Made by a program: the position numbers and the translations under genes. The notes beneath the pieces were generated by a model that saw only the letters and a list, made by a program, of their open reading frames with translations, was not told the DNA's origin and searched no databases. From Tubulanus polymorphus (Eukaryota > Animalia > Nemertea), in assembly GCF_964204645.1 (NCBI RefSeq), contig NC_134031.1, positions 10,230,001 through 10,294,000 on the forward strand: a stretch of 64,000 bases of DNA. Reading direction: 5' to 3'. Within the stretch, counting starts at the first letter, position 1. Each line of letters begins with the position of its first letter. Positions 14,209 through 40,335 of this stretch are shown piece by piece.

Positions 14209-16670
14209 TTGATGAGATATAAAGGCGCAATACCATATTCATTCTATAAAAATCATAATGATTTCAATATAACTGAATTATTAAAAGAACAATTTTATGA
14301 TGAATTAAAAAATGAATATGTTAAAGATGAAGTTTATGATAGAACATTGAATATTTGGAATCATTTGAAAATAAAAAATCATGGACAATTAGTAGATTTA
14401 CATGACATAAATATGGCGACGTTGAGGAAAAAAATGTATGGTTTTGAACTACCTGGTGCCGCCATCTTGGAAATCAAATCGCCAAATCGCTCGCCGAGCG
14501 AGTTGGTCGATTTCAAAAATCGATCGAAAAATCGTGTTCGTAAAAACGCCGATCGTGAAATCGATCGCAAAAATCGGTGCTCGTAAATGCGTTCCTACGA
14601 CCGATCGGAAAAATCTGAGAATTATATATCTTTCCAATTTGGATGTCTAAGATTTATAGATTCATATAGATTTTTAAATCGTTCATTAGATAATTTATCA
14701 AAATCATTAGTTGATGATGAATTAAAACTATTAAAACAACACTATCCAAATAATGATTATTTTCAATTAATGAGATATAAAGGCGCAATTCCATATTCAT
14801 TCTATAAAAATCATAATGATTTCAATATAACTGAATTATTAAAAGAACAATTTTATGATGAATTAAAAAATGAATATGTTAAAGATGAAGTTTATGATAG
14901 AACATTGAATATTTGGAATCATTTCAAAATAAAAAATCATGGACAATTAGTAGATTTACATGACATAAATATGGCGACGTTGAGGAAAAAAATATATGGT
15001 TTTGAACTACATGGTGCCGCCATCTTGGAAATCAAATCGCCAAATCGCTCGTTATCGATCGAAAAATCGTGTTCGTTAAAACGCCGATCGTGAAATCGAT
15101 CGCAAAAATCGGTGCTCGTATATGCGTTCCTACGACCGATCGGAAAAATCGGATGCTCGTAAAAACGCCTCAGAGTTCATCTCGTGATACTATTTACGGC
15201 CTTAAAACGTTGTATTATTATACCAATTATTTTCGAATTAATTTAATTTTCAGAGTTACGTTTATACGCAATAAAACTTCGGTGATTTTCTGATTTTTTA
15301 CGAAAGCCAGTAGCACTGCCATCACTTAAGTAAACAAATTCAAATGAAATATTTGTAATAAATTGACGTTTTGATGGGCTCTAAAAAGGCTACGTTTTAG
15401 GATGAAACGGTCGCTGAAACGAAGTTCGTTTTTGCGCGGCGCAAAAACGAGAAATCACCGCGCTAAAACGCGCCAACACGGGCGCTAAAACGAAGTTCGT
15501 TTCTCTGCTCGTTTTGGCGCGTTTCTGCACGGTAAATTTCGTTTTTGCGCCACGCAGAAACGGACGCAGAAACGAAGCAATATATTTTTTTGCATGGTAT
15601 ATTGCACGGAATTTTTTTTAAAAATAGTTTCGGGTGTATTAGGTGATTTCAATGCAAATGATAACCCTGGATATAAGTTATTATATATAGATGCAAATAA
15701 TCTATATGGTTGGGCAATGATGGAGCCTCAGCCTTATGGAGTATTTAAAATTACTGAAGTTTTACAGTATGAAAATAATGATAAATTTGATTGGAAGAAA
15801 AGAATTCTAGATATTGCAGATGATTCAGATACTGGTTACTTCTTTGTTGTAGATTTGGAATATCCTGAAAACATTAAATTTAAATCAAGGAATCTAGCAT
15901 ACTGCCCCGAACATAAAACTGTAACACATGAAGAATTATCAAATTATCAAAAAAGAATTAAACCCGAAAATCGTATTCATACAGAAAAGTTAATGGTAAC
16001 TCAGGAAGATAAATATAATTATGTAGTACATTATAGAATGTTGAAGTTTTATTTGAATCAAGGAATGGTTATAAAAAAAGTACACAGATATATTTCATTC
16101 AGTCAATCTACATAGTTAGAAAAATATATAGATTTCAACACCAAACAGAGAACCAAACAGAGAACTAAAGCTAAAACTGATTTTGAGAAAGATTCCTTCA
16201 AGTTAATGAATAATGCATTCTATGGTAAGACTTGTGAAAATATCAGAAATAGAAATGATATTGAGTTAGTTAGTAATGGTAAAAGGATAAGGCATTTACA
16301 AACATATCCTAAGTTCATAGGTAACAGGATATTTGATGAAAATTTAGCTGCAGTTAAAATAAGAACTTCTATGAAATTTAATAAACCAATTTATGTTGGT
16401 GCTTCAGTTTTCGAAATATCAAAACTATTGATGTATGAATTCTATTATAACGTATTACAACCTCATTTTGGAGAAAAGCATATAGAAATATTATATTTTG
16501 ATACTGACAGTTACATATTAAAGATAAAAACTAATAACATAACAGATGATTTAAAAACATTAAAACATCATTTTGATATCAGTAATTATCCTAAAGATCA
16601 TGAATTGTTTAACAATGATAATAAAAAGGTGCCCGGTAAATTCAAAGATGAATTAGGAGGTGAAGAAATG
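14209..16670 (+). pseudogene. Protein-primed DNA polymerase B of Polinton A, 5'/central fragments, intein-less allele
   Basis: FIDSYRFL, YIDANNLYGWAM, KLMNNAFYGK, NKPIYVG and an uninterrupted YFDTDS (16494-16511). Also contains a stop, a duplication and a foreign insertion. Confidence 0.92.
14959..15627. mobile_element. GC-richer foreign insertion replacing part of pPolB A
   Basis: pPolB homology stops after GQLVDL and resumes at SGVLGD. The insert has AAAAATCG repeats and a palindromic AAACGAAGTTCGTTT/TTTTGCGC tract. Confidence 0.6.
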
Positions 16671-16738
16671 AGTAATTGGAAGATGTGGGTTTCAGATCAG
16701 AGGACGAGAGGACGAGACACCACTCATCACCACAAGTA
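16671..16738 (+). repeat. Left TIR of Polinton B
   Basis: AGTAATTGGAAGATGTGGGTTTCAGATCAGAGGACGAGAGGACGAGACACCACTCATCACCACAAGTA; exact reverse complement of 33189-33256. Confidence 0.96.
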
Positions 16739-17046
16739 ATAATTCAATTGAGTATGAGACACCACTCATCACAGCTAGGCTCTAGTGAGAACGGACGATT
16801 GCTCTGTGACACACATATACAGTGAGTGCGCGTAACAACAGCTGCGCGTGGATAGATCGATACAGTGAGTCTCTACTGAGAACGGTTATTAATGCGTGTG
16901 CTATTACTGTAGTACAGTGATTGCGTGTCAACTGTACCCGGATAAATAGATGCTGTGAGGCTTGGGTGAGAACGGTTAATAGCGTGCTTGTTATATAGGG
17001 GAAGTAATCCCCACTCATCACCACAAGTAATTTGTTTTCCTTATAA

Positions 17047-17369
17047 ATGGGAGATAGAAAAGCATTCTTAGCAACAATAAATAACAGAATAAAACCAGCA
17101 AAAAAACAATTTGAAATAAAAAAGTTAGTTGATGTTACAAAAGAAATTGAACATAAAATATTGAAATTAGAAAAGATAAAAACTAAATATGGAGAGAAAG
17201 TATCAGCGAATTTAAGCTACTGTAATGTTAGTACATCGCGAGAATTTAAAGTATTTTTACCTGATAAATGGGTTTCATTGAGTACAGAGGAAAAGATTTA
17301 GAAGGATTTAAAATAATCTATCATGGAAAAAATGAAGACGGCCATCATGATTTAGAAATTGTTGATTAA
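17047..17369 (+). pseudogene. Conserved small Polinton protein (homologue of 33644-34009), disrupted near the 3' end
   Basis: Shared T.KYG.K, F...LPD and GKNE.GHHD motifs; function not established. Confidence 0.7.
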
Positions 17370-17452
17370 ATTTAAAAAAAATAAATTAATAAAAATAATG
17401 AATATCTAGAATCCGAAATGACTTATCTGGACAATTTAATTGCTCCGCATAG

Positions 17453-17483
17453 ATGGTGCCATAAACGGCACCCACACAGTGAT
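17453..17483 (+). repeat. GC-rich palindromic element, copy 3 (between convergent genes)
   Basis: ATGGTGCCATAAACGGCACCCACACAGTGAT. Confidence 0.75.
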
Positions 17484-17560
17484 AGACAAAAGTAGTGAGA
17501 TATTCAATTAATATTCAATTAATTAAAAAAAATTACTTTTTTTGCTTTTTTTCTAAAATA

Positions 17561-17929
17561 TTAATCCATTTTTTTTATTATCAATTTTGGAATTTCAGAA
17601 GTATTTTCATTTTTGATAGCAGTTGTTTCAGAATTATTAATATCATGAATTTTATTTGATTTCTTATACCAACTACACCCAATCAAAATGAATACAATTA
17701 CAAATCCAACTGTGAAATATAGACATTTATCAAATATTCTATCATTAGAAGGAGTAGAAATAACAATATTTTCACTATTTTTATTAACATTTTTATTACT
17801 TATTTTTTCTTTTACAGCTTTTTTATATTCTTGTGATTTAATTCCTAATTGCCGAGACCATTCAATTTGTTTCTGTGATCTCGGTTTTTTCTTCACAGTT
17901 AATTCCTTCACTTCTTCCACCTCGCTCAT
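17561..17929 (-). CDS. Polinton small basic protein with one predicted transmembrane helix
   Basis: 122-aa ORF with TAAATG start and hydrophobic CLYFTVGFVIVFILIGCSW. Confidence 0.7.
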   Translation of the reverse strand: MSEVEEVKELTVKKKPRSQKQIEWSRQLGIKSQEYKKAVKEKISNKNVNKNSENIVISTPSNDRIFDKCLYFTVGFVIVFILIGCSWYKKSNKIHDINNSETTAIKNENTSEIPKLIIKKMD

Positions 17930-18468
17930 TTATTATAGAAATATTTTTACTTTCAATATTTGAAAATGTTATAACCCCAGTTGATAATAATGTCATAAAT
18001 CCACCTAATTGAAATGATAAATATCCAATCCATTTATTTAATTCAGTCATAACTAAATAATCATTTTTTAAATCGGAATATAATCTATTTTCATCTTCAA
18101 TTGGTAGTATATAATTACATAATTTACTATAACCTTTTACTACATTTTCTGATATCGCGTCATTAATTCTAGCTGTTCTCGCGTCTTCATAAATCTTAAA
18201 TAATCTAATAATTTCATCTGATTTCATTGTATCTAATTCATTATAAGTTAAATTTTTACCGACAAAATTTTTACATTTTCCAGATGCTATTAATATTTCT
18301 AATTGATGTTTACAATAAAGATAATATTCATAATTATCATTTGTTGTAACATTATTTAAAGCACCATCATCTGGAATTAATTTTGTTTCTGTTATTCCTA
18401 AATCATCTAAAGTTTTTTTCAGTTGGAACATCACCATTTTTCAATTTTATTTTCTTTTCACCTACCAT
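17862..18468 (-). pseudogene. Conserved Polinton hypothetical protein (frameshift near start)
   Basis: Homologue of 13189-13799; the TAAATG start at 18468 is out of frame with the 18437 ORF. Confidence 0.7.
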
Positions 18469-18499
18469 TTATATAACAAAAAAATTAATTGTGTTGTTG

Positions 18500-18770
18500 C
18501 AACTAGAATTCAACTAGAATGTAACTAGAATTCAACTAGATTAACAAGCTAGTTGAAATATTGTTGTTTTTGTTTATTTCTTGTTAAATCTAGTTGATTT
18601 TTGTTCCAACTACTAACAACTAGAATTCAACTAGAATGTAACTAGAATTAAACTAGATTAACAAGCTAGTTAAAATATTGTTAAATCTAGTTGATTTTTG
18701 TTCCAACTACCAATAACTAGAATTCAACTAGAATGTAACTAGAATTCAACTAGATTAACAAGCTAGTTGA
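18500..18770. repeat. Three blocks of 11-bp phased repeats (AACTAGAATTC/AACTAGAATGT)
   Basis: Blocks at about 18500, 18617 and 18714, immediately downstream of the ATPase gene. Confidence 0.85.
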
Positions 18771-18772
18771 AT

Positions 18773-21119
18773 TTAAATAAATTCATATTTAAATGGGTGT
18801 TGTAATCTAAATAGTAATTTTGATCTTTTAATATTTTTCTCCTTATCCATATATTCATTATGTAAATCATGCGGAATAATATCATTTTCCTCAAGTGCAT
18901 TTTTCATCGATTTTCTATCTTTATTGTAGAATAAAACTAGAAATCTAATTTTTTCTCTAAAGTCTTTAACAATTGAATTATATTTTTGATTTAAAACCCA
19001 AGTTGTTATCCCAAAATGTCTGCCAGAAAAAGCTAAATAACATAACTCACTTTCTCTAACTTTTGAATCATGTAGATTAGCACAATCATCTATAATGAAT
19101 AATGTATTTGATCCTTTATAAATATCAATTGCTATTTTAATACAATTATCTAAATTTTCTTTTACTGTTTTAGGATCTAATACAAGAGCCCCAATGGGCA
19201 CAATGGCCAGCCTGTCAGATTTGCTTTTTATAAATGATGTAATCTGTTGGTTATATTTATCAATATACACTCCCTGCTCAATATCATTTACATAGTAAAA
19301 TCGTGTGTTAACACAGACAGCAGGAACGAATGTAATATAGAAATACGAAGTTATTGTATTGTTCAACGCCCCCTGGTGGCCATATACAAAAACCAATGAG
19401 CTTGAAACTCACCAAGATCATAGACCATGTCATGAGCTACAACTTTCCAATTGATTGTGGTAGCAAAATATGCATAGGTACGAATGTAATATAGAAATAC
19501 TAAGTTATTGTATTGTTCAACGCCCCCTGGTGGCCATAAACAAAAACCAATGAGCTCGAAACTCACCTCGATCATAGAACGTCATGAGCTACAACTTTCC
19601 AATTGATTATAGTAGCAAAATATGCTTAAGTATCAATTATGATGTGGAAAAACTTTTTTCCACCTACGAATGAGTACTGATGACTCCAAGATGGCCGCCA
19701 AGTGCGTCGTAATTGCCTGGTCAAAAATACCCTCTCGGATATAAAAGATCCCTTTCCAAAGAATACCCATTACAAATTGCAATGAAACATGGCACACCAT
19801 TAGAAAGCTACAGTACTCAGAATTCAGGCCAAAATTGACATTTTTGGGAACAAAAAAGGTCACAGTACAGCCATCTTGAGCCCGATCGACCCAATTTTTC
19901 TCATGCCGATGGGCCCACGGGGGAAACAAATATATACGAATTATCAAGGTTATTGATAAAAGTGTCTTCAAAATTTCCCTCGAAAACTTCAAAAATGTGT
20001 AAAAAGTGCTGATTTTGGCGAACAACAATGGCTGCCAGTCGGCCATCTTGAATCTGACAGGGCCAGTTTTTGGCCTGAAGATGTGTCTAGGGTAGATACA
20101 CGTATAAACCAAATATCAAGACATTACCTTGAAGCCTCTTCAAAACTTTGGAACTCTCACGAACTATCTAGATGGTTATCTCTCGACCTCAATAGCTTCA
20201 AGACCCATCTCAAAACAACTTTGTTCCATGCAGCATACCATTAACTCTCGGAAAGCGAATTGTATTTAACATTTTTTGGCAGAATAAAATTTGATTGAAT
20301 TTGCAATATGGGCACATGGCTAATTAGCATATCAAGGTCATACACCCGATTTGGTAAAACCATTTTTTTCGCGAATCTTGCGCAATTGTCAAGGATGAAT
20401 TTTCTGTAGAGCAAATAAAAATTCCTCCCAAACACCAAATCAACTAAAGATTTCATAGAAATCGATCTTGAAATACAATTTTAAATCTTAAAATAAAACC
20501 CGGAAGTAAAACAGTAGACGATACCGCGGGTTCACGTGAACACCTGATTTCTGTAAACGAAATGTTGGTTGTGACAAAATTGTTCAGACGGTTTTAGGTG
20601 GTAATAAGTACGGAAACGTAACGACCATGGTCGACTTATTCGATGAAATCAGGCCTATGTGATATCCAAATTTTGACTTTTTTATTCTCCAGACCTCCCT
20701 GATATAGAAATAAAAAATTTTGGTGGTACGAAAGTGCAATCACAGCGCCGACGGGGACAGAGCCGTGTCAGAGATCGATTCGAGAATGGACTACGCTTAA
20801 ATACGTGATTTGTTCGAATATGCCCTCACTTGACAAGCAAAAGAGCCTTTTGTGTGGAAACCATGTCATTTAAATTCGCTCCATTTGTATAGTAATAGGC
20901 TCAGCCTACGGCTGGCCTAATAATAAATTTATTATTTCTAGTAATATTTCTATCATAAGTTTGATTAAATTCATATGTTGGGCAAAATAATACTATATTA
21001 TCAAAATAGTTTTCATAAACAGTTTCTAATAAATTTAATATAAAATAAGTTTTTCCACAATTTGTTATGCCAGATATTAACATATTATGAGGCTCAAATA
21101 TAAATAATTCTTTATTCAT
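18773..21119 (-). pseudogene. Packaging ATPase of Polinton B, split by a 1.7-kb insertion
   Basis: 5' part 21119-20919 (GITNCGKT ... NNKFII); 3' part 19181-18773 (LDPKTVKENLD ... FIIDDC ... SGRHFGI). Confidence 0.9.
19182..20918 (+). mobile_element. Helentron-like non-autonomous (possibly composite) insertion with ~154-bp internal repeats
   Basis: Starts ACAAGAG, ends with the hairpin GGCTCAGCCTACGGCTGGCC, and has no TSD. 19340-19920 matches 58580-59800. Confidence 0.65.
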
Positions 21120-22190
21120 TTATATATTTTTAATTTTACTTGTTAATATCCATTTATTGAATTTATCTGGCCATCCAACCCATTTTACTAAAGAATATTT
21201 TTTTCTTTTAACAGTTTTTGTTTTTAATACTTTTTCAATTTTATATTCTTGTTCTAGATTTTCAGTAGTTACACTTAATTCTTCTTCGTAAAAATACCCA
21301 TCAACTTCTTCACCATCTAAATCTTCTAATTTATAGACATATGGTTTTGTTGTTATTACCTTTTTTATTTTATATATTTCTCTAGTAAAATTTCGATCGT
21401 ATCCCTTGTCAAATATCTTTTTATACTTAGAAATTCTAACATTTTGACAAACTTTAAATTTAGGTTCAGCAAAATCATCTACAAGAAATGCTCCATATAA
21501 ATTATTCCAAACAATTTCAGCATTTTCAGGTTTTCTAGCATCAATAGCTTTCATTCCAATAGAAGAATGATAAGAATTATTATATCCTTCTATCAATTTT
21601 GGTAAAACATCAATCCATTTAAAAGTATTATTTGCTGTAAAATATTTCCACATTCTTGTTCTTAATGTTCTATTAAATCGTTCAACAACTGCTGCTTTAT
21701 CCGATTTTGTTGAAAAATATTTAATATTATGATTGCCTAAGAGTTCATGAACAAGTGAATTATCAAATTCTTTTCCATCATCAAATTGTATTTTTTCTGG
21801 TTTTAGTTTATCATCCGAAAGAAATTTTCTTAAAACATTTGATGTTTGTACAGCATCTTTTCTATAAAGTGGGAAACTCCATACATAACGACTAAAAATA
21901 TCAATTTTATTCAATAACCACCAATAATCATCATTACCTTTCTTAACATTTTTCATATCTATCAAATCTCCTTGCCACTGTTGATCTACATAACTTACCA
22001 TAGTTTTACGAGTTTTATATTTTCTAACAATTTTTTTATGCGTTGTATATGTTGGTTGTTCTAACATAAATTCATTTATATCTTTATATTTAACTAAATT
22101 GTGTGGGATTATCTTATCTAATTTATCTTGTTTTACTTTACTCCATATATTTTTGGTAGAAGAATAAGCAACCGAACTCTCAGGGTTGTA
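21120..22190 (-). pseudogene. rve integrase + chromodomain of Polinton B, extreme N-terminus deleted
   Basis: WQGDLIDM, IQFDDGKEF, AAVVERFNRT and SLVKWVGWPDKFNKWI. The frame extends upstream to YNPESSVAY, where it is fused to the MCP gene. Confidence 0.9.
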
Positions 22191-23280
22191 ATGAATTATC
22201 CTCTGTTGTTCTAAAATCTAACCATAATGCATATTTATTACCGGTATAATAATCAATTTGATTAATATTACAATTTTCAAATGATTTTACTTTTTCATTC
22301 ATAAAATGTTTTCTAATTTCTGGCCATTGATCAATCATTCTCATTCCTTGACAAAATATTTTATTTGCTATTCCTTCGATAGTTATTTCTACTTTTGTTA
22401 TTTCAGGATTATAATAATTATCAACCTTTATTGCGCCATTAGAATATGTTGCAATGGTAAAAAATATTAATATACCTTTAATAGATCTTCTTGGGAAGTT
22501 AATATTCTCATTAATTATTTCATCATTTGCATTAATAGTTACAGTTTTAAATTTATCAATATAATCATATAATAATGAAAATCCTTGATTGTATTGAGTT
22601 TGAATTGTGCTAGCAATATTTTCATTAGTTACTGTGTTATATTCTAAACATATATTCGATAATTTATAACCCATATCTTTAACAACGCTAGATAATAAAA
22701 TTTCATTAACAGGAGCAAATGTTATCTCAAATATAATATCTTCTTGAATTGCGTATTTATATAATGTTGCATTATTATTTATCAATTCAAAGTCTAATGG
22801 GATTTTATATTTGCTTCCATAAATCTTTTTAATCAAATTATCTGTGGCACGAGTTACTATTGCGTCATTAGCTCCTGATCTTAATTTATTATGGTTTTCC
22901 GATTGAATACCCTGAAATATCATATTATTTCTATTTTCTTTAGTTAACCATAAATCTTTATAATGCATAAATTAATTATAATCATCTAATGAGAAAACTG
23001 TTTCTGGACCAATCTTTATAGTTAATTTTTTAATCAAATATCTCCCAACATTATCAACAACATAATTGTTATCATGGCCAGTTACTTTTATATCAGCTGA
23101 TAAATAAATACTATTTAGAACATAAAAAGTATTTTGTGTTAATCTAGGAATTCTAACATATAAAGTTTCATCGGGATTAATATTTGAAGGATTATGTGTA
23201 ATTATATGATGTGATCTTTCTGCTTTAATAGCATTAGATATTCTAGAAATCTTAGAAGGACTTATATAACTCCCACTCAT
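22180..23280 (-). pseudogene. Major capsid protein (double jelly-roll type) of Polinton B; one internal stop, C-terminus deleted
   Basis: HHIITHNPSNI.PDETLYVRIPRL, NVGRYLIKK, YKIPLDFE, NICLEY and YALWLDFRT; colinear with 39057-40303. Confidence 0.82.
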
Positions 23281-23300
23281 TTATTTAACAAAAAAATTAA

Positions 23301-24757
23301 TTATTTATTTTTAATCATATTCACTAGCCCAAAAATAATAGCACTTACAACTGTAATTAAAAATAAAATAATATGTTCAGCAGCAAAGTTAAGAATATTC
23401 CCAGCAGATTTCAATATAAAACCAACAATTGATGCAATAATTCCTGGCAATGCTGTACAAGTCCCTATACAAGTTAAAGCTAATTTAGTATTTTCATGTA
23501 ATTTATTATCATTATCAGTTTTAATTATATCATGTTGAATATCACCGTGTGGGTGCCATACGGCACCATTATCAGTTTTAATATTTTCTGTAGTATTGTA
23601 ATCTTTTATTCTAGAATCATTATGCAATTTAATATTTTTAGTTTTAGTTTATGTTGATTGAAGAAGTTTTTTATTTTTTTCACCTTCCATTAATTTTGGA
23701 GCATCTTTTTATTTATATCATTGAATCCAATTGAATTATTTATTGTTGCAGTTTTAATAAGATTATTATAACCAATTATATTTCCCATCTTTAATACTAA
23801 ATCATTAGAAATAATTAATAGATTAGGTCCTATACAATAATTTAATCTAATATGTGATTTATCTAAATAATTTTGATATCTTACAATGTTTTCTGGAATC
23901 GATCTATTTTTATCATTATGAATGGAATCTTCAAATAATACTTTGAATTGTTTCTGCGCATCAAACGAAGTACTATTATTTCCAACTATTGGTGATCTTG
24001 TTTCAACTTGTGCACCTAAAATACATATCAAATAAGTTCTAATTGATTGATTTATTCTTTGTATAGCAGGTTTTGTAAATCCTTCACTATAAGATTCAAT
24101 AAAATTAATCCATCCATTATTATTATCAATTCTATAATTATGATAAGCTCCAATTCTATGCATATAATCAATTCTTTTTATTTCATACTGTTCACCAACG
24201 CCATGTAATCTACCATGCGCTCTAAAATCGGAATTAATATTTATATTAAATTCATTACATATTTTGTAAAACTTAGATAGATTAATATTATTATCCAATT
24301 CTTTAAAATATTTCGATCCAGGTAAAGGGCATTCTAATTCATTTAATATTATTCTGATTTGAAAATATGTGTGAAATCTAAATATTGTATGAATGAATTT
24401 TAAATCAGAATATTTCAAATTTTTATCTAAGTTATTCAAGTGTTCATGCCAACTTACACCACAACCAGTTGTTGCACAATGAACAGCAAAATTTAATTGA
24501 TTCTGCTAATATTTCATATTAGATTTTACTTTATATATATTATATTCATATCGAGTAAAAGTAACTTCATATGTATTAAATATATTTTCCATTTTAGAAA
24601 TAAAATAGTTTGTTTCAGTAACATAAATTTCTAAATTAATCAATGAAGGCAAAACTAAATTTTTATATATTATTATGTTACTAAAATCTATTGCTGGAAT
24701 ATTATATTTATAATACTCATGTGATTTATTATATTGGAAAGCTTTTGGAAACCCCAT
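23301..24757 (-). pseudogene. Conserved Polinton gene (YxQNQLNFAVxCATTGCG family) fused by deletion to the hydrophobic tail of the next gene
   Basis: Colinear with 36279-37570, then jumps to ALPGIIASIVG (compare 38880-39035). Confidence 0.75.
23541..23569 (-). repeat. 29-bp GC-rich palindromic element, copy 4 (in-frame; absent from the homologue in A)
   Basis: ATGGTGCCGTATGGCACCCACACGGTGAT. B reads KTD-NGAVWHPHGD-IQH; A reads KTD-I-IQH. Confidence 0.85.
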
Positions 24758-24773
24758 TTATATAATAAAAAAA

Positions 24774-25200
24774 TTAATAATTAACTAATTCTTTTAATAA
24801 TTTATCTTGTTCTTCAACTTTTATATGACCATTTAAACTTATTATATAATCTAATGTATTCTTTAATTTATTAATTTCTTTTATATTAGTTTTAACTTTT
24901 TCTTTATTACTTTTTATATTTAATTTTGAACTTATACCAGTTAAAACACTTGAACTTAATCCTAATACACCAATTGATATAGCTAAAGGTGTTAATGGAC
25001 TGAATATTGCTAGAAATGTTATTACAGAACTAATTGTAACCGAACCACTAATAATCAAATAATGTATAATTTAAATATTTTTTCTTTTTAACTTTTAAAT
25101 CATTTTCAAATTCTAATATTTGTTTTTCTAAATATATCTTTAATTTAGTTTTATTTATATCATGAGGAATAATATCAATATTATCAACTTTATCTTCCAT
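24774..25200 (-). pseudogene. Polinton hydrophobic/coiled-coil protein (homologue of 35819-36262)
   Basis: ISGSVTISSVITFLAIFSPLTPLAISIGVLG; frameshifted; TAAATG start. Confidence 0.7.
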
Positions 25201-25219
25201 TTATTTAGAAAAAAAATTA

Positions 25220-25642
25220 CTAATTAGTAAATTTATATGCTACAAATATAACAATAACTGTTCCACCTAAAATCCAAATTATTTCATATTTCTGTTGTTC
25301 TTTACTTGGGGTATAATAATCTGATAATTTTGGTTTGTATAGATGTAATTTTTCTTTATTTGTTACCGCGTTATATAAACTCATTGCATCATCAACTAAT
25401 TGAAAATCTCTATGTGAAATCTTCTGATCATATAATTCCTTGTTAATATAATCCATATAGTTTTGTCGTTTTTCTCTGTATTCTTCTGCTGCTTTATTAT
25501 ATTTCTCTAATGCTAAATTATGTCTTCTTTGTTCTCCTAATGAACTATCTTTATCAATATGCTTAAATAAATAACCGCCACCAGTAAATGCTAAAGCGTT
25601 AACAATTGCTGATCCTATAATAGTTATAATTGCAGAAGCCAT
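25220..25642 (-). CDS. Conserved Polinton protein with hydrophobic N- and C-termini
   Basis: MASAIITIIGSAIVNALAFTGGGYLF ... IIWILGGTVIVIFVAY; homologue at 35371. Confidence 0.8.
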   Translation of the reverse strand: MASAIITIIGSAIVNALAFTGGGYLFKHIDKDSSLGEQRRHNLALEKYNKAAEEYREKRQNYMDYINKELYDQKISHRDFQLVDDAMSLYNAVTNKEKLHLYKPKLSDYYTPSKEQQKYEIIWILGGTVIVIFVAYKFTN

Positions 25643-25666
25643 TTATTTAGTAAAATAATTACACAT

Positions 25667-25885
25667 TTATATGGGAGGAATATATTTTTGTTTTTCCAAA
25701 TAATCAATAGTTAAATTAGAAAAAGTAACTGCTAATGTTAATTTTAAGATATCATTTATATCAAATCTATCAACATTAACACTTCCCATTTTGAATACTT
25801 TTTTTAATACCATTGAATAACCAACAGTTCCAACTGATAGTAATGCTCCATTATATAATCCAGTTATTATCCACTTATCACTCAT
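25667..25885 (-). CDS. Small conserved Polinton hydrophobic protein
   Basis: 72-aa ORF ending DYLEKQKYIPP; homologue at 35128-35354. Confidence 0.75.
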   Translation of the reverse strand: MSDKWIITGLYNGALLSVGTVGYSMVLKKVFKMGSVNVDRFDINDILKLTLAVTFSNLTIDYLEKQKYIPPI

Positions 25886-25899
25886 TTATTTATCAAAAA

Positions 25900-26242
25900 A
25901 ATTACTATCTTCAAAATATTTAGTTATCTTAGTGATGATTAATTCAACATTTATTTCATTACTAGTTTCATTTGTATATATTTCAATTATTATTTTTTTA
26001 ATATCATCGATGATAAAATCTTCATCTAATTCATAAAATCTTTAAGATTCTCTAATTAAATTAGTAATATTTTCTACATTAAAAGTTTCTTTATCTATTG
26101 TTGTTTCATACTCAAATGTTGTTTCATTAGAAAATGCAATATTTTTAATATGTGTTATTACATCATTAATGTTGAATTTCATTTCTTTCTCACGTTTAAA
26201 ATCAAACCCAAAACATATACTCGGTCCAACAGTTATATTCAT
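25900..26242 (-). pseudogene. Polinton hypothetical protein (homologue of 34785-35120), internal stop
   Basis: Shared MNITVGPSICFGFDFK start. Confidence 0.7.
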
Positions 26243-26258
26243 TTATATAATGAAAAAA

Positions 26259-27005
26259 TTACTCTCTACATCTTATAACTAATTCATAAATTACAGGAAA
26301 GTTATTCAAATCAATTAAATATCCATTATGATTTCTTATTTCTAATTTAAAATTATTAAATTTAGGAATGCAAGGTTTAAAATCACATTCTGTTAAATTA
26401 TAATTTATTTGAGTTCCAAATTGTTTAACATTTTTAGCGGTAAAATATTTCGTATACTAGAACTACAAATTGTTTCTTTAGTTGCTTCGAAAGTTTTTGT
26501 AGGATCAATTAAATTGCAATAAATATAAAAATGCGTAAAAGGTATTATATTTGGCTTAGTTTAAACATTTAAATACAGAATATTTGGATTAACTCCTAGC
26601 TAATGGTTTTCTTACTGCGAATTTATATTGTTCATTAGTTAAATTTATTCCTATTTTATTAGTACTATCAATTTTATTAAATTTAATATTAAATTTGGAA
26701 TCACCTCTAATTTGTATTCGTGCTTTTCTATTAATTTCTTGAGCTAATGTTTCTAAATTATATAATCCTGGTGTTAGCATAAGATCAAACCATTTATGAT
26801 TATTTCTATTAAAAATTAAAAAGGTTCTATGTTCATCAGTTTTATCCGTTATATTATAAAAAGAATTACATAAACTTATATTAACTAATTTTAAATCTAC
26901 ACAATTCTTAAATTCTCTATCTAATTGTACTAATTAATTATGTGATTTATAATTTGTAAGTCTTCTTGAATCAACAAATATTCTGTATTCTTTTAATTCA
27001 CCCAT
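26259..27005 (-). pseudogene. Minor capsid (penton-like) protein of Polinton B
   Basis: YRIFVDSR, LCNSFYNI, PGLYN, FYIYCNLI and LEIRNHNGYLIDLN; disrupted. Confidence 0.7.
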
Positions 27006-27073
27006 TATTTATAACACAAAAAAATTACCGCTCATCACTAAAAATTAATTTTAATAAAATTTTTCCTTAATAA

Positions 27074-27709
27074 ATGGATGAGAAGATACCATGTGAAATT
27101 TGTGGTGAACTTCTAAGAAAAAGTAATATGGCTCGACATATGAAAAAACATGATGAAAATTATAAACCCCCTAAACTAAACTGCCCAAAATGTAATAAAT
27201 TATTCTCAAGAAATTATGTTAAAAAACATTCAGAGACGTGTAAAATTAATGGCGCAACGGCTAATGTTGATAGTAACGAAAGTAATAGTAATTCTGCTGA
27301 AGTTGAACCTGAAGTTATTTGGAAAAGACCTTTCTTATTCTATGATAAGGATAATATAAAAGATCATTTCTGTAAGCCTTGTCGAATAAAATATAGCCCT
27401 GAAAATATAGAAGATTGGGAGAATCATCAATTTCGTAAAGCACATATAGATAAAATTTCTAATAAATTTGAAACTGAATTCAATGAAAGAAAAAATAATA
27501 TATTAGAAAAAATAAAATATGAGAAAACGTTACCAGATAATAAAGAAACAGTTGAAAAGTTAGATAAACAATATAATGAATTAACAAGAAAAACATATTA
27601 TTGTAAATATTGTAAATTGATTATTACAACAAGTAATCTACATAATAGAACAATAAAACATAAAGAAAACGTTAGAAAATACCGAGAGCTTAATGAAGAT
27701 TACCAATAA
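27074..27709 (+). CDS. Multi-zinc-finger (C2H2-type) protein
   Basis: CEIC..HMKKH, CPKC..H...C, CKPC..HQFRKAH and CKYC..HNRTIKH; TAAATG start. Confidence 0.82.
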   Translation: MDEKIPCEICGELLRKSNMARHMKKHDENYKPPKLNCPKCNKLFSRNYVKKHSETCKINGATANVDSNESNSNSAEVEPEVIWKRPFLFYDKDNIKDHFCKPCRIKYSPENIEDWENHQFRKAHIDKISNKFETEFNERKNNILEKIKYEKTLPDNKETVEKLDKQYNELTRKTYYCKYCKLIITTSNLHNRTIKHKENVRKYRELNEDYQ

Positions 27710-28377
27710 ATTATAAACGAAAATGTCCACAATGTAGTTATGCGACCTTTAGACAAGAAGGTACTGTGTTATTTTGTAATGAATGTGGATGGCAAAAGAA
27801 TTCATTGGGTGAAGAAAAAACTAGAAATTTTCTCATAGATCCAAAATTAAATTATCTTGATGAAATTTTTAAAATATTTTCTATAGAAGATCATACACCA
27901 GAATATATGCAATGGCCTGAAAAAATGAAAATAATAGAAAATAAAAATGGTGAAATAACTAAAAAAGATATTATAAAAACAATTATTCCGTCAACATTTA
28001 ACACAAAACAAAAGAAAATGTATTTATATTTATTATTTAACGATTATTATGAAAAACCTAAATTAACAGAAGATATGAAAAATATAAAAAAAATATTCAA
28101 ACAAATATTAATGTATCATTTGGAAAATAGAATAACAGATTCAATTAATCATGAATTCTTTTTAAATAAGATTGTAAATTATTTAAACATCGATATTATA
28201 ATTCCATTTGACGAATTAACAAACAAAAAGAAACAAAGAGAGCGAGATGAAATGTGGAACAAGATAGAACTTTATTTAAATGAGAAAAATGAAATGGAAG
28301 AAGAACCTAAACAATTAAATGAAAATGAAGAAGCCAATAGTGATTTCGAGTATGATGATATTGATTTTATGTTTTAA
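27697..28377 (+). CDS. VLTF3-like (poxvirus A2-type late transcription factor) protein; start codon apparently damaged
   Basis: The open frame from 27697 gives the zinc ribbon KCPQC-x13-CNECG, then KLNYLDEIF, PKLTEDMKNIKKIFKQI, SINHEFFLNKIVNYL and KKQRERDEMWNKI. This matches the VLTF3 pattern by eye. Confidence 0.65.
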   Translation, partial: RLPINYKRKCPQCSYATFRQEGTVLFCNECGWQKNSLGEEKTRNFLIDPKLNYLDEIFKIFSIEDHTPEYMQWPEKMKIIENKNGEITKKDIIKTIIPSTFNTKQKKMYLYLLFNDYYEKPKLTEDMKNIKKIFKQILMYHLENRITDSINHEFFLNKIVNYLNIDIIIPFDELTNKKKQRERDEMWNKIELYLNEKNEMEEEPKQLNENEEANSDFEYDDIDFMF

Positions 28378-31300
28378 TGACCATAAGGTAATGTTTTTAT
28401 ACCATCATCTAAAATATGCCTTTTATCATCAAATGGATTCAAACTAGTTTTTTCAACTTCATTAATGTACATCTCGTGATCTTCTGATCTTAAACAATTC
28501 ATTTTGTGTTTCATTACAATTGAGTTATATAAACACTTTATATAATCTTGAAATTCTATATGTTTATCAACCACATGTTTTGTTATTCCTTTTAACTTTT
28601 TAGCTTCATGATCTTTTGCTCTATAACTATACATTTTACTTCTTATCCCAACAAATTCAATCATTTCATCACCCCCTAATTCATCTTTAAACTTACCAGG
28701 AATCTTTTTATTATCATTGCTAAATAGTTCATGATCTTTGGGATAATTGCTAAAATCAAAATGATGTTTTAATGTTTTTAAGTCTTTTGTTATGTCATTT
28801 GTCTTGATTTTTAGTATGTAGGCGTCCGTATTTTTGGCTATTAATGGAAATCCACAGTTAAATGTACCATCTTAAGTTGATAAATCATAAACATAGTCAG
28901 TTGGGTTATATATTTCAAATAAATCTTTAACTTCTTCTGTTACTTCTTTTTCTACATGCCTTAAATTAAAACAATTTGGTTTAGATTTAATTAATTCTAT
29001 ATTCATATTAAATCCTAATGAACTGCATAATATATTTAATCCTGATATAGCAACTTTTCCTTTTTGAGCTAAAGATATTGTTTTGAAACTTTTTGAACCA
29101 TCTGCTGCATAGAATCCAATGAAGAACCATTTTCTTAAATTATTTTTTGCATTCAATACATAGTCTGGAACTATCTTTTCTTAAGTTGAAGTATTACTTT
29201 TAACTATTGCATGGATATAGAATTCGTTATTATATTTTGTAGCAAAATCTTTAGGGTTATTTACAAGTATTCTATAAACTGCTGTTGATATCATATGATC
29301 CACGATTCTAAATGTTTTATGTGAATAAACTTCTTTACAGAATTTCTTTATTCTTTCTAATAATTTCAAATCTTGATTGCATAAATACCAGCAATATTGA
29401 GTGCGATTAACATAATTATACACACCTGCTGAACCATCTCCCATGAAAAATCCTTTGTTAAAATATTCTTTTTCTTCTAATGTTTCGGGTTCTATGTTAT
29501 AAATATTATCAATTATTTCATCAAATGACATATGATTCATTCTTTGGAAAAATCTTTTATGTAATAATTCATCTCCAATTTTTATATTAGTTGGTTTTAT
29601 TTCATCACCATTTCGTTTAATTAAACTATGATCTTCTGTAACATCAACAAACCCTAATTTAGTTCTAACTCTATAGATTTTCTTATTTGTTTTATGCCTA
29701 ATAATATTCTTTAATTTTCTCCATCCATTTCTTGTCCAAACATCCATTAAACCATTTATTTGTATTCTTTTTAATATAACTGCTGTTAAATAATCTTCAA
29801 ATCTTTTATTTCCTAAATGTCTAGGACTTGATTGTAAATGTCTTAATCGTTCAGAATTATTTACTAATTCAATATCATTTCTATTTCTAATATTTTCACA
29901 TGTTTTACCATAAAAACTATTATTCATTAATTTGAAGAAATCTTTTTCAAAATCTGTTTTTGATATGGTTCTCTGTTGAGTATTGAAATCTATATATTTT
30001 TCTAACCACTTCGATTGATTAAATTCAATATATCTATGTACTTTCTTTAATTTCATTCCTTGTTTTAGATAAAATTTTAACATTCTATAATGAACAATAT
30101 AATTGTATTTATTATTTTGAGTAAGTATTAATTTTTCTGTAAAAACATGATCTTTCGGTTTTATTTTTTTTCTGGTATTCACTTAAATAACTATCATCTA
30201 CAGTTAAATGTTCTGGGCAATAAGGTAAGTTTCTTGTTTTAAACTTTATATTTTCAGGATATTCTAAATCAACTACAAAGAAATAACCAATTGGTGCTTC
30301 ATCTTCTAAACTCATAATTGCGCTTTCCCAATTAGTTTTATCATCATTTTCAACTTCTGTTTATATAAAATTTTTATATGGTTGAGGTTGCATCATTGCC
30401 CAACCATATAAATTATTGGCATCAATATATAATAATTTATATTCATCATTTGCTTTAAAATACCTATCTCCCATAACACCACTAATTCCACCTCTAATTG
30501 ATTTTTCAAATAATAAAACCATATCTGGTTCTTTTAATAAATCTAATTCTACATTTGTATATTTTAAACCACATTGCCAGGTTAAACCAGGGCTAGAGTA
30601 GCAATAACAAGGATCAACATTAAAATGATTCAAATTAACTTCTCTAAATTTTTCAAATATGTCAGCCAATATCATAACATCTGATTTTAAATATAAATCA
30701 ACTAATTCACCATGATTTTTCATCTTAAAATGATTCAAAATATTTAATGTTCTATTAAACACTTCGTCTTTCACATACTCCTCTTTTAATTGATCATAAA
30801 ATTGATCTTTTAATAATTCTGTTACATTAAAATCATTGTGTGTTTTATAAAATGAATAAGGAATTGCACCTTTATATCTCAATAATTTAAAATCTTGTTC
30901 ATTTGGATAATAATATCGAGTTATAACAAAATCATTATCAACTAAACTTTTTGATAAATTATCTAATGAACTTGCTAGAAATCTATAAGAATCTAAAAAT
31001 CTAATGCAACCAAATTGAAATAAAATATAATTTTCAGATGTTTTAGCTAATAGTTTAAAATCATATTTTCTTACATTTACACCATTCATAGCATTATATT
31101 CTTCTATTTCTTGATTAATTGCGCCCAATTTTCCCGATAATTGTTTTATAAATAGATGAGTATCATAGCCTGATAAATTATGAAATAATATTGGTACGAA
31201 ATTAACTTTCTTAGCTTGTAAATTGCAATCTTCATGAGCAGCTCCACGATATTTTGAATTTAAATGATCATGATCTCTAACTTTTTTATCAAATGAATAA

Positions 31301-33171
31301 AAACGTTTTTCACAATAACAACAATGAGTTGCATAATTAAAATCAATTTCATCTTCTTTTGTCATAACTATTCTTTTATTTTTGTTTAATAATTTTGCAA
31401 AATCACTTTCTAATTCAATCATTTTATCACAAAAATCATTAACTACATTTTCACCTCTAAAAGAAATATATTGACTTTCATATAATTCAGGATAATTTGA
31501 TTTTATATAAATTCCATAAGCAGCAGCTCTTTGATGAACTTTTTTAATTGTATTTATAATTGGTGGGTCTTGTATTGTGTCTTCATTTAATTCATATCCT
31601 TTATCCATTGAGTTTAATAATTGCTTTTTGTTATATATTTCTTTTCTATCTTGATCAGTTAATTCTTTATTCAACGATTCAAAATCCCCATGAATTACAA
31701 ATGGAACAATATTCTTAAATTTATGATTAGTAAATTTCAATTTATAATCTTTTTTTGTTGGCATTATTAATTTACAAAAATCTTTATTATCACATAATTC
31801 TTTATGTTTTAATAATGTATTCTCAGTCATAAATTTAGATAAGCATTTTCTACATAGATAAATTTTACGATGATGATCACTTTCTGTTCTAAAGAATAAA
31901 TCAATTTGTTTTAACCACATATAATGTTCATTTTCATCTTTTTTGTAATATAACAAATCTATAACATTTTCATCATCATAATATTCTGTTAAATATAAAG
32001 CTTCTAATGTATAATCTTTAATATTTTCACCTTTTGTCTTTGGTAATTGCATTAATTCGAATACATTTATTTTTAAATTATTAACTTTTTCTATTTTAGG
32101 AATCATTTTTATAGTTACTGGATATTGATCAATTTTATATAATGTTTCATATTTCCGGTAATCTGTTATTCTACAAACATTTTCCTGAGTTGGATGTAAG
32201 CAACTAATAATTGACCATAGAAAACATTTATTATCTTCATTTTGAATATTTATTACTGATTTCGTTGTAAATGGTAATTTAATATAAGATGATGCTTTAA
32301 TATCCTTTTCTGTTGTAAAGTTTGAATCATTTTTAAACATTTTATTACTTTTTGATGTTTTATTTCTTTTTGTATTATAAACATTTAAACCTAAATATAT
32401 AATTTCATTCAATGTTAAGCCAGAACCCTCAAAATATCTTTCTTCAATATGACGTTTAAATTCATTAAATATTTTTTCTAACTTCTCTTTTATTTGTGTT
32501 TTTGAAATTATTTCTTCAGAGTGTGTTTGAATATTATAATTCATTTTTTCTTCTGACTTTATAAAACTTACTTTCCCAGAGATACTAATTTTTGGATATT
32601 CAAGATCTGTTATCAAATCTAGTATTTTTTCTATTATTTCATTAAATGTACTATAATCTTCTATTGTTGTACCTTTAAAAAATCTAAATATAATAGCTGC
32701 AGGACCAATTTTACTACGTAATGTTTCTAATATTTCAATTGTATCTTTTATTTCTAGTGAATCAATATAATTTCTAACATTTTCCATGTAAGGTTTATTT
32801 GAAATGGATTTAGTTTTTGAAGTTGGTTTTTTTACTTTTTGAGGTTTATCATCAAAATAATCTTTTCCTAAAACATTATTACTCAAATTTTGATGGTGTT
32901 TTTGTGATTCGAGATGTCTATTATAATTCCTTTTTACTATAAATTCATTACAAACTTCACATTTTATTTCATCCACATTCATATTTTCTAATTGTTCTTT
33001 TCTTTCATTGGAATTTTCTGGAGTTTCAAAATCTATTACATTTTTTATATGATTTGCAGTTTTTTCATGTCGTGTGTTATTAGATGTATCGACGTATTTT
33101 TTACAATATTGGCAATAATATTGATTTTTATTAACATTATTATTTTCTGGCTGGTGTTCATTCTCCCCCAT
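28374..33171 (-). pseudogene. Protein-primed DNA polymerase B of Polinton B with N-terminal zinc fingers, endonuclease-VII-like insert and intein
   Basis: ExoI HGDFESL, ExoII FHNLSGYD, ExoIII YLKSDV, PolA YIDANNLYG, PolB KLMNNSFYGK and C-terminal SLNPFDDKR; frameshifts at about 30360 and 30165. Confidence 0.95.
28830..29765 (-). mobile_element. Intein remnant with LAGLIDADG homing-endonuclease domain at pPolB motif C
   Basis: Block B VDVTEDHSL, block C GFFMGDGS, block E GFYAADGS, blocks F/G YVYDLST*DGTFNCGFPLIAKN followed by extein TDAYILKIK. It lies in a single frame with two stops; block A is missing. Confidence 0.9.
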
Positions 33172-33188
33172 TTATTAGGAAAAAAAAA

Positions 33189-33256
33189 TACTTGTGGTGA
33201 TGAGTGGTGTCTCGTCCTCTCGTCCTCTGATCTGAAACCCACATCTTCCAATTACT
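33189..33256 (-). repeat. Right TIR of Polinton B
   Basis: Reverse complement of 16671-16738, followed by the TSD GAAATG. Confidence 0.96.
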
Positions 33257-33625
33257 GAAATGATAGAGTTCATCGGAATTCGATCTAAAATGTATAGTTA
33301 TAAAACCAAAACTCATGAATAAAAGAAATGGAAAGGAATTACCAAAAGTTTAGTTGCAAAGAATATTCATTTCAAAGACTACATCAATTGTATATTCGAT
33401 GAAGAAGTTAGAAAACATAAGTCGAAATGTTTAAGATCAGAAGATCATGAAATGTTTATTGAAGAGATAGAGAAGATAAGTTTGAATCCTTTCGATGATA
33501 AAAGATATATTTTAGATGATGATATACACACAGTTGCTTATGGTTGCAATTTAGATGAATACTTAAAGTTTAAAAGAGAAGAAACAAAAGAGAATGAGAT
33601 TATGAAAAGGATTCTAGCATGTTAA
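33257..33625 (+). pseudogene. C-terminal fragment of Polinton A pPolB
   Basis: EMIEFIGIRSKMYSY ... KGITK ... SLNPFDDKRYIL continues the frame broken at 16670. Confidence 0.92.
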
Positions 33626-33643
33626 TCAAATTTTAATAAAGAT

Positions 33644-34009
33644 ATGTATTATAAATGGAGAGTAAACAAGTACACAGTGAGAACAACACATCATTTTCTA
33701 AATAGAATCAAAGATGCTACAAATGCTAAATCAGTAGATTTTAAATTTAAAAAGTTAACAGAATTAACAATTCATAAGAAATATTTAATTACAAATATTG
33801 ATACAGTTACTAACAAATATGGAGATAAATTAGTTATTCACTTAGAAAATGAAGTGTTAAAAGGAAATAAATATAAATTCAGAACATATTTACCAGATAG
33901 ATTTCATAGATTATCAAGTGAAGATCTAGAAAAATTATGTTCAGGTGATTTCTATTTTATATACAAAGGTAAGAATGAAAAAGGGCACCATGATATAGAT
34001 TTCGAATAA
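33644..34009 (+). CDS. Conserved small Polinton protein (homologue of 17047)
   Basis: TNKYGDKLV...FRTYLPDRF...YKGKNEKGHHD; the likely true TAAATG start at 33655 is frameshifted. Confidence 0.7.
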   Translation: MYYKWRVNKYTVRTTHHFLNRIKDATNAKSVDFKFKKLTELTIHKKYLITNIDTVTNKYGDKLVIHLENEVLKGNKYKFRTYLPDRFHRLSSEDLEKLCSGDFYFIYKGKNEKGHHDIDFE

Positions 34010-34026
34010 GAAAATATGTAAAATAA

Positions 34027-34760
34027 GTGGCGGAATTAAAAGAATATAGAATATTTGTTGATTCAAGAAGACTTACAAGTTATAAATCACATAATTTACT
34101 AGTACAATTAGATAGGGAATACAAGAATTGTGTAGATTTAAAATTAGTAAATGTAAGTTTATGTAACTCCTTTTATAATATATCGGATAAAAGTATTGAA
34201 CATAGAGTCTTTTTTATTCATGACAGAAATAAGAATAGATGGTTTCATCTTTATCTTAAACCAGGATTATATAATTTAGAAACATTAGCTCAAGAAATTA
34301 ATAAAAGAGCACGCTTAAAAATGGGTGCATCTGCTGGATTTGGATTAAGACTTATTAAAAGTGATAGCTCTGATAAAATAAGAATAAAATTAGGCAATGA
34401 AGATCAACATCAATTTCTAGCTAAACTGTTAGGAATTAACACAGATGAAAGGATACGTAATGCTGATGCTACACCAAATATAATACCTTTTACACACTTT
34501 TATATTTATTGCAATTTAATTGATCCTACAAAGACATTTGAAGCAACTAAAGATACAATTTGTAATTCTGGTTTATTGAATATTTTACATTGAAGAATGT
34601 TAAAGAATTTGGAACACAAATAAATCATGATTTAGCTGAGTGCGATTTCAAACCATGCATTCCTCAATTTAATAATTTTTGATTAGAAATTAGAAATCAT
34701 AATGGATACTTAATTGATTTGAATAACATTCCTGTGATATATGAATTAGTTATAAGATGA
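34027..34760 (+). pseudogene. Minor capsid (penton-like) protein of Polinton A
   Basis: Colinear with 26259-27005; frameshift near 34590. Confidence 0.72.
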
Positions 34761-34784
34761 AAAGAGTATTTTTTTGATATATAA

Positions 34785-37700: not shown

Positions 37701-39035
37701 GAAACAGCATATAGTTCTAATTTAGCAGATAGTGGTTCTAAAGCTCCATCAACAAAGGAGTTTGATAGAAGAACTAAATCGAGAATAAATCCTGAAAATG
37801 AAAATCCAGATTTAGTAAAACAAAATTTAGAATATAATGAATATGTGTATCATTTCAAACCTATATTTGAAAGATCTGGATATAATATCAATGAGAGAGG
37901 TGCTAGAAATTTAGTAACAGAATTAAAACTTTTAGATGGTGAATATTATTATCGTTTGAAAGATGATTATTATATTGATATCACTAATAAACGTGAAAAT
38001 AAAATATTAGCAGAATCAACTTTGAGAAAATTAGAAACATCTTGAATTAAAAGAATAAGTAATAGTAATGAAATAGAAAATGTTGCCGACACAGAAATAA
38101 ATAAAAAGAGTATTTAAACAAAGAATAAATGAATCATTTGAAATATTAAAAAATAATTTAGAAACAGAAACAAGTTCTGAACAGAATATAACTTCCAAAA
38201 CTAGTTAACTTAAATCAAATAGAGTTCCAATTGAAAAACTTTTACCGAATGGATTAATTGATGCAACAGATCAACAATTAGAAGATTTAAATATATTTTC
38301 TGATAAAGCAATTAGAGAAATGATTAGTATATGAAATGAAGCTGATAAATTTGCCCATGACAAAAGTATAAGAGATTTTAAAATTAGAACTTTAGAAAAA
38401 GATAGAACTGATAAAATTAAAGAAATAGAACAATTAAAATTGGATAGAGATAATATAGTTATTGAAGAAATTGAATTTTGAAAAAGAAATGCATATTTAG
38501 AAAAAGAAAAAGATGATTTAGAATATAACATAGAATTACAGAAAGAAGAAATCAAATTATTATTAAAATCAAATGATTATAATATTAATAGATTAAAAGT
38601 TATTTTTAAAGATTTGTTGATAAAACCAAATTCTGATATATCATTGAAAGATAGAATAAAATTATTATTTTTAAGTTATAAGGTATAACAATTCTTTCAA
38701 TTGTAACAGCTGTAACTATGATATTTACAACAATAGGTTTAGCTATATCAAATGCTTTAAAATCTACACCTACTCCCAATAAACTGGGTAAACCTCCAAA
38801 TAATAATAATTCTATACAAGAAAAAGATGGTTTAAAAAAATTAGTAAAATATCTATGGGAATTATCTAAAAAATCTGCTGCAGCTTTACCCGGAGTTATA
38901 GCATCAATTGTTGGTTTTGTATTAAAATCTGCTGGAAATATTATTAACTTTGCTGCTGAACATATAATCTTATTTTTAATTTCTGTTGTAAGTGCAATTA
39001 TTTTTGGATTAGTGAATATGATCAAAAATAAATAA
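34785..39035 (+). pseudogene. Cluster of six conserved Polinton genes (starts 34785, 35128, 35371, 35819, 36279, 37593), mostly disrupted
   Basis: Same order and high similarity to B genes at 26242-23301; each starts at TAAATG; many stops and frameshifts. Confidence 0.8.
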
Positions 39036-39056
39036 TCAATTTTTTTCCTTAAATAC

Positions 39057-40303: not shown

Positions 40304-40335
40304 AATTTTAATCTAAGTAAAAAATTCTATAATAA

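Follow-up and report, generated by a model that had tools for sequence, protein, structure and literature searches.

Maverick/Polintons (Polintoviricetes, adintoviruses; PMC8502044, 10.64898/2026.06.19.733378; here and below, papers are cited for the parts of their text available to us) have terminal inverted repeats (TIRs), a 6-bp target duplication, a protein-primed DNA polymerase (PolB), an rve integrase, an A32 packaging ATPase, and a double jelly-roll capsid protein. Whether animal Polintons produce virions, and which machinery transcribes them, is a long-standing question. We analyzed 64,000 nucleotides of the nemertean Tubulanus polymorphus (contig NC_134031.1, positions 10,230,001 to 10,294,000 of the forward strand; this whole stretch is called the window, and positions are counted from its first letter). 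The element at 16671-33256 is a Maverick/Polinton, a broken copy of a high-copy subfamily. It has all of the features named above and differs from the described Polintons in a clade-wide TAAATG start signal and a LAGLIDADG intein at polymerase motif C; no cysteine protease was detected.

Mavirus and the endogenous mavirus-like elements (Lavidaviridae) share with this element a protein-primed polymerase, an rve integrase, integration, and one putative helper-type late promoter (PMC6428243, PMC6723459). Every Mavirus gene carries the late promoter of its helper virus (PMC6723459, PMC6428243), and such sharing is a virophage signature (PMC6723459). In contrast to Mavirus, the element has a Polinton-type capsid, a likely animal host, no protease match, and no shared terminator; it is known from sequence, and its helper and any antiviral effect are hypothetical. 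The Polinton-like viruses associated with entomopoxviruses are likewise Polinton relatives and are proposed poxvirus hyperparasites in animals, but they come from occlusion bodies, have divergent capsids, and in two of four cases lack a detectable integrase (PMC11296320). The words “promoter,” “intein,” and “VLTF” do not occur in the main text of that report. Polintons, a Polinton VLTF3, poxvirus-associated Polinton-like viruses, and virophage promoter sharing are thus already published.

Two further systems resemble parts of the element. The vaccinia late promoter consists of a T-containing core, a gap of 5-7 bp, and TAAAT(G/A) (PMC5294985), with transcription beginning inside TAAAT and producing a slipped poly(A) leader (PMC4542343, PMC6211774). 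In yeast virus-like elements, too, TAAAT overlaps the start codon, and a T-rich core precedes it by 5-7 bp (PMC5294985, PMC4542343, PMC6211774); both the pox and the yeast replicons encode their own RNA polymerase, whereas the element does not. In giant viruses (for example, in the Mimivirus polymerase P0056) and in archaea, the motif-C inteins of PolB occupy the same YxD/TDS site (the slash marks the insertion point), with an Asn end and two LAGLIDADG blocks; relatives of the element's intein have a Ser start. In contrast to these inteins, that of the element lies in a protein-primed polymerase and belongs to a clade of its own with 11 members.

TAAATG gene starts in one Polinton clade

The element is bounded by identical 68-bp TIRs, each beginning with AGT (16671-16738, plus strand; 33189-33256, minus strand), and both flanks carry the 6-bp target duplication GAAATG (16665-16670, plus strand; right copy, 33257-33262). 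The original prediction of a capsid-encoding, integrase-bearing element held up, with an integrase match to Pfam rve above cut-off (E 2e-9) and a capsid relative, 75% identical, whose fold (pLDDT 90) is a double jelly roll. The capsid relatives are Polinton loci. One capsid relative carries a bivalve name, which, together with the repeat-rich 35-40% GC of the flanks, points to a likely animal host. The Mavirus capsid ranked 39th or lower in the fold search, and the Lavidaviridae capsid module with protease was not found. A cysteine protease, a trait of Polinton group 1, had no Pfam match in 26 window open reading frames (ORFs), although this copy carries deletions. No RNA polymerase subunit, poxvirus type included, was found in these 26 ORFs or in 30 further proteins scanned.

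TAAATG stands at 12 of the 13 gene starts defined by homology, that of the polymerase included; the 13th start reads TAAATAATG. The background in the element is 47 of 672 ATGs, giving a binomial p of 2e-13 for the gene starts. The signal heads terminal and divergent genes too. To place it among relatives, we used 80 metagenome loci picked by capsid, in 63 of which the capsid start could be scored. TAAATG was present at 15 of these starts, namely, in the 13 nearest loci and in L075 and L076. In a capsid tree (76 rows, quick search) every TAAATG locus fell within one 26-row clade with an SH-aLRT of 100, counting as positives L015, whose motif lies 5 nt upstream and out of frame, and L072, which was labelled via two other genes; the sister group had TAAATG in 0 of 50 rows. 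Near-complete clade members carry the motif at most of their ORF starts (L001, 15/18; L075, 12/17). The TAAATG initiators of the original prediction are therefore present well beyond this copy.

The sequence upstream was also patterned. Over 73 starts, the frequency of T peaked at positions -14 to -12 from the ATG (0.68-0.85), with a T-run about 6 nt upstream of TAAATG, as in poxvirus late promoters. A helper-type late promoter before most genes, which is a trait of the virophage lifestyle, is thus present as a sequence match. We found no description of a clade-wide TAAATG promoter in animal Polintons in a literature search that covered titles, opening lines of abstracts, and term counts of mostly open-access papers.

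AT bias, the coupling of stops to starts, or upstream poly(A) signals could also yield such a motif as a by-product that has no link to large viruses. The element is only about 24% GC (flanks, 35-40% GC and rich in repeats), and two inner starts directly follow an upstream stop, as this explanation would have it. Neither source of the motif withstood the counts: stops and starts are coupled at 8 of 78 starts, and AATAAA occurs at 29 of 78. AATAAA depletion in coding strands did not tell a nuclear from a cytoplasmic element, with observed-to-expected ratios of 0.97 in the TAAATG clade and 1.03 in other AT-rich Polintons; T5NT was depleted in most groups. TAAATG is retained in clade loci L006 and L007 at 40-44% GC and nearly absent from AT-rich outsiders (L022, 1/11; L026, 0/4; L016, 0/7). 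Together with the binomial value, these controls largely refute the by-product explanation, which we find scarcely credible. TAAATG is the strongest of the four signals (start motif, VLTF3-like gene, polymerase intein, and GC hairpins) on which the original prediction relied, but it is not unique to poxviruses.

The VLTF3-like gene, the intein, and the hairpins

The predicted VLTF3-like gene is real, as judged by features and fold search, despite having no match above cut-off to the Pfam VLTF3 family (PF04947). Features from a language-model atlas gave 0.96 to VLTF3 clusters. A model of the protein (pLDDT 69, built from a four-sequence alignment) had as its top three matches the VLTF3s of cowpox and two entomopoxviruses (E 7e-7 to 1e-5), with the other named VLTF3s of nucleocytoplasmic large DNA viruses at E 2e-3 or worse; this poxviral ranking may reflect similar protein length. 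Relatives are few, only three among 1.84 billion representatives, and in two of them zinc fingers like those of the upstream frame (27074-27709) of the element precede the VLTF3-like part in one fused protein. IMG/VR yielded no relatives of this protein or of the capsid, and an HMM from the four VLTF3-like sequences found no additional locus. The gene is not new, since VLTF3 has been published for a polintovirus subgroup (PMC11131425).

This gene can be read in two ways, as a captured factor for a helper polymerase or as a private factor for host RNA polymerase II (Pol II). On the second reading, the element would be an autonomous nuclear Polinton whose VLTF3-like protein steers Pol II to TAAATG in an early-to-late switch, with no helper. 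The protein is predicted to have a zinc ribbon and a cyclin-like fold, as TFIIB does, and the best solved chain for the model was indeed TFIIB in a Pol II initiation complex, albeit as a weak match (Z 5.4, rmsd 3.6, 93 aligned). Small viruses can keep such factors, as VLTF2 and VLTF3 are conserved in mriyaviruses (PMC11253617), and the genes of coral polintoviruses are expressed (PMC11131425, whose available text names no helper). The very many insertion sites of the family, described below, also suit an autonomous element. What speaks against autonomy is first the initiator itself: a start codon inside it leaves no 5' leader unless the polymerase slips, and slippage has been reported for the polymerases of poxviruses and of yeast virus-like elements (PMC6211774). 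Second, a distinct early gene class is missing, because TAAATG heads the VLTF3-like gene and the polymerase as well. Third, L075 has 12 TAAATG starts and no detected VLTF3-like gene (its contig is incomplete), a finding that counts against the captured factor as well. We consider autonomy possible but unlikely.

The polymerase intein (28830-29762, minus strand) is a remnant with two in-frame stops. Its Intein_splicing and LAGLIDADG_3 matches are below Pfam cut-offs in this copy, and an uninterrupted intein from another Polinton polymerase matches it over its length at 61% identity. The remnant ends KN/TD at motif C (YxD/TDS). A deletion removed the N-terminal splice end of the intein and about 45 polymerase residues before it. 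Thus, the Hint domain, insertion at a conserved site, the Asn/Thr end, and both LAGLIDADG blocks are present, whereas the N-terminal nucleophile and an open frame are absent here but present in relatives.

Among the best 120 of 463 intein matches, the nearest were in protein-primed polymerases (61, 49, 46, 45, 47, and 45%), and the next were in RNA-primed PolBs of the large-virus type, Mimivirus included, at best about 41%. With 116 of the 120 bounded for the tree, the window intein and 10 Polinton inteins formed one clade of 11 (FastTree 0.999; SH-aLRT 86 in a second tree). This clade includes P0006, a polymerase of the other class, and so spans two polymerase classes between which BLAST finds no match. 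As a separate observation, the TAAATG clade likewise uses those two unmatched classes (L075:8186-12253; P0006). One cluster of intein relatives has 136 members; the contigs of the 15 listed span 57 kb to 1 Mb, with several at full length. Most archaeal motif-C inteins were distant (E 1e-12 or worse), and three inteins on contigs titled as archaeal metagenome-assembled genomes scored 1e-35 to 4e-63; two PolB inteins on contigs titled in this way (L161 and L164) nest among large-virus inteins, either by genuine transfer or by misbinning.

The original prediction called the intein one of large-virus type, acquired in a virus factory. Its reality and its motif-C site were confirmed, but it groups with Polinton inteins and came to the element from, or with, other Polintons. 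The trees did not place it with nonviral inteins, as would have counted against the prediction. When six distant archaeal inteins served as the root, the Polinton inteins branched outside the large-virus clade (97) at an unresolved fork, and nesting within that clade was not rejected (approximately unbiased test, p 0.47), so acquisition in a virus factory is neither shown nor excluded. In 80 intein-bearing large-virus loci, TAAATG stood at 80 of 981 starts, and therefore the kin of the intein and the kin of the promoter differ. The intein is genuine, yet it does not identify a helper.

The intein had no match in the 80 capsid-picked loci, only some of which reach the polymerase. Homing endonuclease inserts in protein-primed PolBs have been suggested to derive from inteins (PMC11071308). 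We found no description of a motif-C LAGLIDADG intein in animal Polintons in the same literature search. A review gives inteins as absent from multicellular organisms (PMC5874633). In contrast, the intein here occurs in a high-copy family of a likely animal genome, in about half of its polymerase reads, and it has relatives with open frames.

The fourth signal fared worst. GC hairpins do exist in the element (2 observed versus 0.25 expected), at 17455-17472 between converging genes and at 23552-23567 within coding sequence. Both are copies of one repeat of about 30 nt, and the second is absent from this position in L001 and in the outer Polinton copy into which the element is inserted. The proposed position near gene 3' ends did not hold, and we rejected the hairpins as terminators; a helper-type termination signal was not found. 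Neither the element (6 observed; shuffles, 3-16) nor L001 or L075 is enriched in long Mimivirus-type hairpins. A third copy of the repeat, near 12700, falls within another element's integrase frame. The repeat thus inserts in frame into Polinton genes, and P0242 has a similar repeated in-frame insert.

Proposed transcription by a helper virus and its alternatives

The element encodes no RNA polymerase, and the start codon lies within a pox-type initiator at nearly every gene. For these reasons, we think there is about an even chance that this Polinton subfamily is transcribed by the RNA polymerase of a coinfecting pox- or iridovirus-type helper. Transcription would start inside TAAAT, with a slipped poly(A) leader at the 5' end. 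A captured late factor, the VLTF3-like protein, would favor the element's promoters. The element's DNA would be copied by its own protein-primed polymerase and then packaged, and its own integrase would insert it, as in Mavirus. The intein may be a homing passenger that spread among Polintons, a record of old DNA contact with large viruses. Dependence on a helper virus, as originally predicted, was a reasonable inference that the clade-wide promoter strengthens, though it remains a pattern in sequence. The further claim that all four signals converge on one helper failed, since the hairpins are not terminators and the large-virus kin of the intein lack TAAATG.

Several observations weigh against helper transcription. 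We saw no helper virus, no transcript, no 5' end, and no free DNA, and no position was listed in the Illumina reads at which many molecules begin or end. The likeness to poxviruses was judged against the published promoter layout. A scan of 1/64 of IMG/VR for back-to-back TAAATG patterns recognized no locus as a poxvirus. The best TAAATG-rich large-virus locus found was L194, with an iridovirus as best capsid match and TAAATG at 9 of 13 starts; the search pattern that yielded this locus contained the motif itself, and the VLTF3 of L194 barely aligns with that of the element (probability, 9%). We regard L194 as a candidate helper type. Within the clade, 8 of 26 rows lack TAAATG, and that of L015 is displaced. 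A late factor of its own would be superfluous for a pure parasite, heavy spread in the host genome is easier for an autonomous element, and the expression of coral polintoviruses noted above points the same way.

Read data bear on the spread and on the condition of other copies. In one Illumina run under the same species label, 18,134 reads matched when fitted to 28300-33400. Of these, 549 were junction reads that exit the right end into unlike flanks (agreement, 0.36), and therefore there are many insertion sites. Depth was 128-256 in six intein bins versus 310-535 in the polymerase, which puts the intein in about half of the polymerase copies. The breaks of this element were mostly missing from reads of the other family copies.

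These data also speak to whether a helper-dependent ancestor left the promoter, the VLTF3-like gene, and the intein behind as relics, the helper being gone and the family now moving by integrase transposition and leaky host transcription. Each of the three Polinton copies in the window is broken, TAAATG was lost in several clade members, and the helper was not found. The reads, mostly free of the breaks of this element, do not fit a relic, nor does the retention of TAAATG at almost every gene over capsids that are 32-56% identical and over very different base compositions, which implies continuing selection. We therefore hold the relic explanation to be decidedly unlikely.

If a helper does transcribe these Polintons, the promoter predicts as yet unknown pox- or iridovirus-type viruses in these hosts. 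Being clade specific, it offers a direct test and a sequence flag for Polintons that are possibly helper dependent. A bolder version, argued by analogy, would have the whole clade parasitize, as endogenous elements, a pox- or iridovirus-type virus of marine invertebrates that has yet to be discovered. The elements would lie silent until the polymerase of the helper reads their TAAATG promoters, would have carried a functional intein into animal chromosomes, and would act through their many integrated copies as a Mavirus-like inducible antiviral. We rate this version, and with it the antiviral role of the original prediction, as quite improbable. The window copy cannot itself be such an antiviral because most of its core genes are broken.

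Gene order and surroundings

This copy is dead. Its polymerase has stops and a frameshift, a deletion joins capsid and integrase, and host repeats lie within the ATPase. From the left end, a small conserved gene with a TAAATG start adjoins the TIR (17047-17301, plus strand; 71% to L001). The next genes lie on the minus strand. Two conserved unknown genes (17561-18468) have TAAATG starts at 17929 and 18468, the second being frameshifted near its start. The A32-like packaging ATPase (18773-21119, TAAATG start) survives as pieces at 20901-21119 and 18773-19185, separated by about 1.7 kb of host repeats. The rve integrase with chromodomain (21120-22179) has lost its start to the deletion that also took the end of the capsid gene. 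The double jelly-roll major capsid protein (22180-23280, TAAATG start) has one in-frame stop and a deleted C terminus. A broken conserved unknown gene (23301-24757), with TAAATG at its start at 24757, is deletion-fused to the tail of the next gene. Four small conserved genes follow (24774-26242), all with TAAATG starts (25200, 25642, 25885, and 26242) and one weakly SLATT-like. The gene with the deviating start is a broken, probable minor capsid protein (26259-27005; DUF5901, E 0.006).

The zinc-finger and VLTF3-like gene (27074-28377, plus strand, TAAATG start) consists of overlapping frames at 27074-27709 and 27697-28377. The protein-primed PolB (28374-33171, minus strand), of the beta/endonuclease-VII type, is broken by stops, a frameshift, and a deletion, and its TAAATG start lies directly inside the right TIR end. 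Its C-terminal pieces are 53-59% to P0001, a PF03175 protein. In relatives, TAAATG starts also precede a deoxynucleoside kinase (L001:10340-10981; PF01712, E 2e-31) and free-standing HNH or endonuclease VII genes (L003, L006, and L021). A 431-amino-acid protein of the TAAATG clade had no atlas match.

The element sits inside the polymerase gene of a sister Polinton on the opposite strand. The 5' part of that intein-less gene, whose motif C reads YFDTDS, is at 14212-16670 (plus strand), and the remainder of the interrupted copy is at 33257-41000 (plus strand), with a structural block 85-90% identical and TAAATG starts too. A third Polinton copy is scattered over about 11.2-13.8 kb and 45.2-46.7 kb. 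Farther out, 47105-49186 and 53000-56200 contain what their motifs suggest are a decayed long terminal repeat (gag-like) retroelement and probable DIRS-type retroelement fragments; no Pfam match was found in the two pieces scanned. At the left edge of the window, inverted 144-bp satellite arrays (1-584 and 7841-8704) flank a 632-amino-acid HECT-domain ORF (1965-3863), an arrangement that is possibly a gene-carrying DNA transposon.

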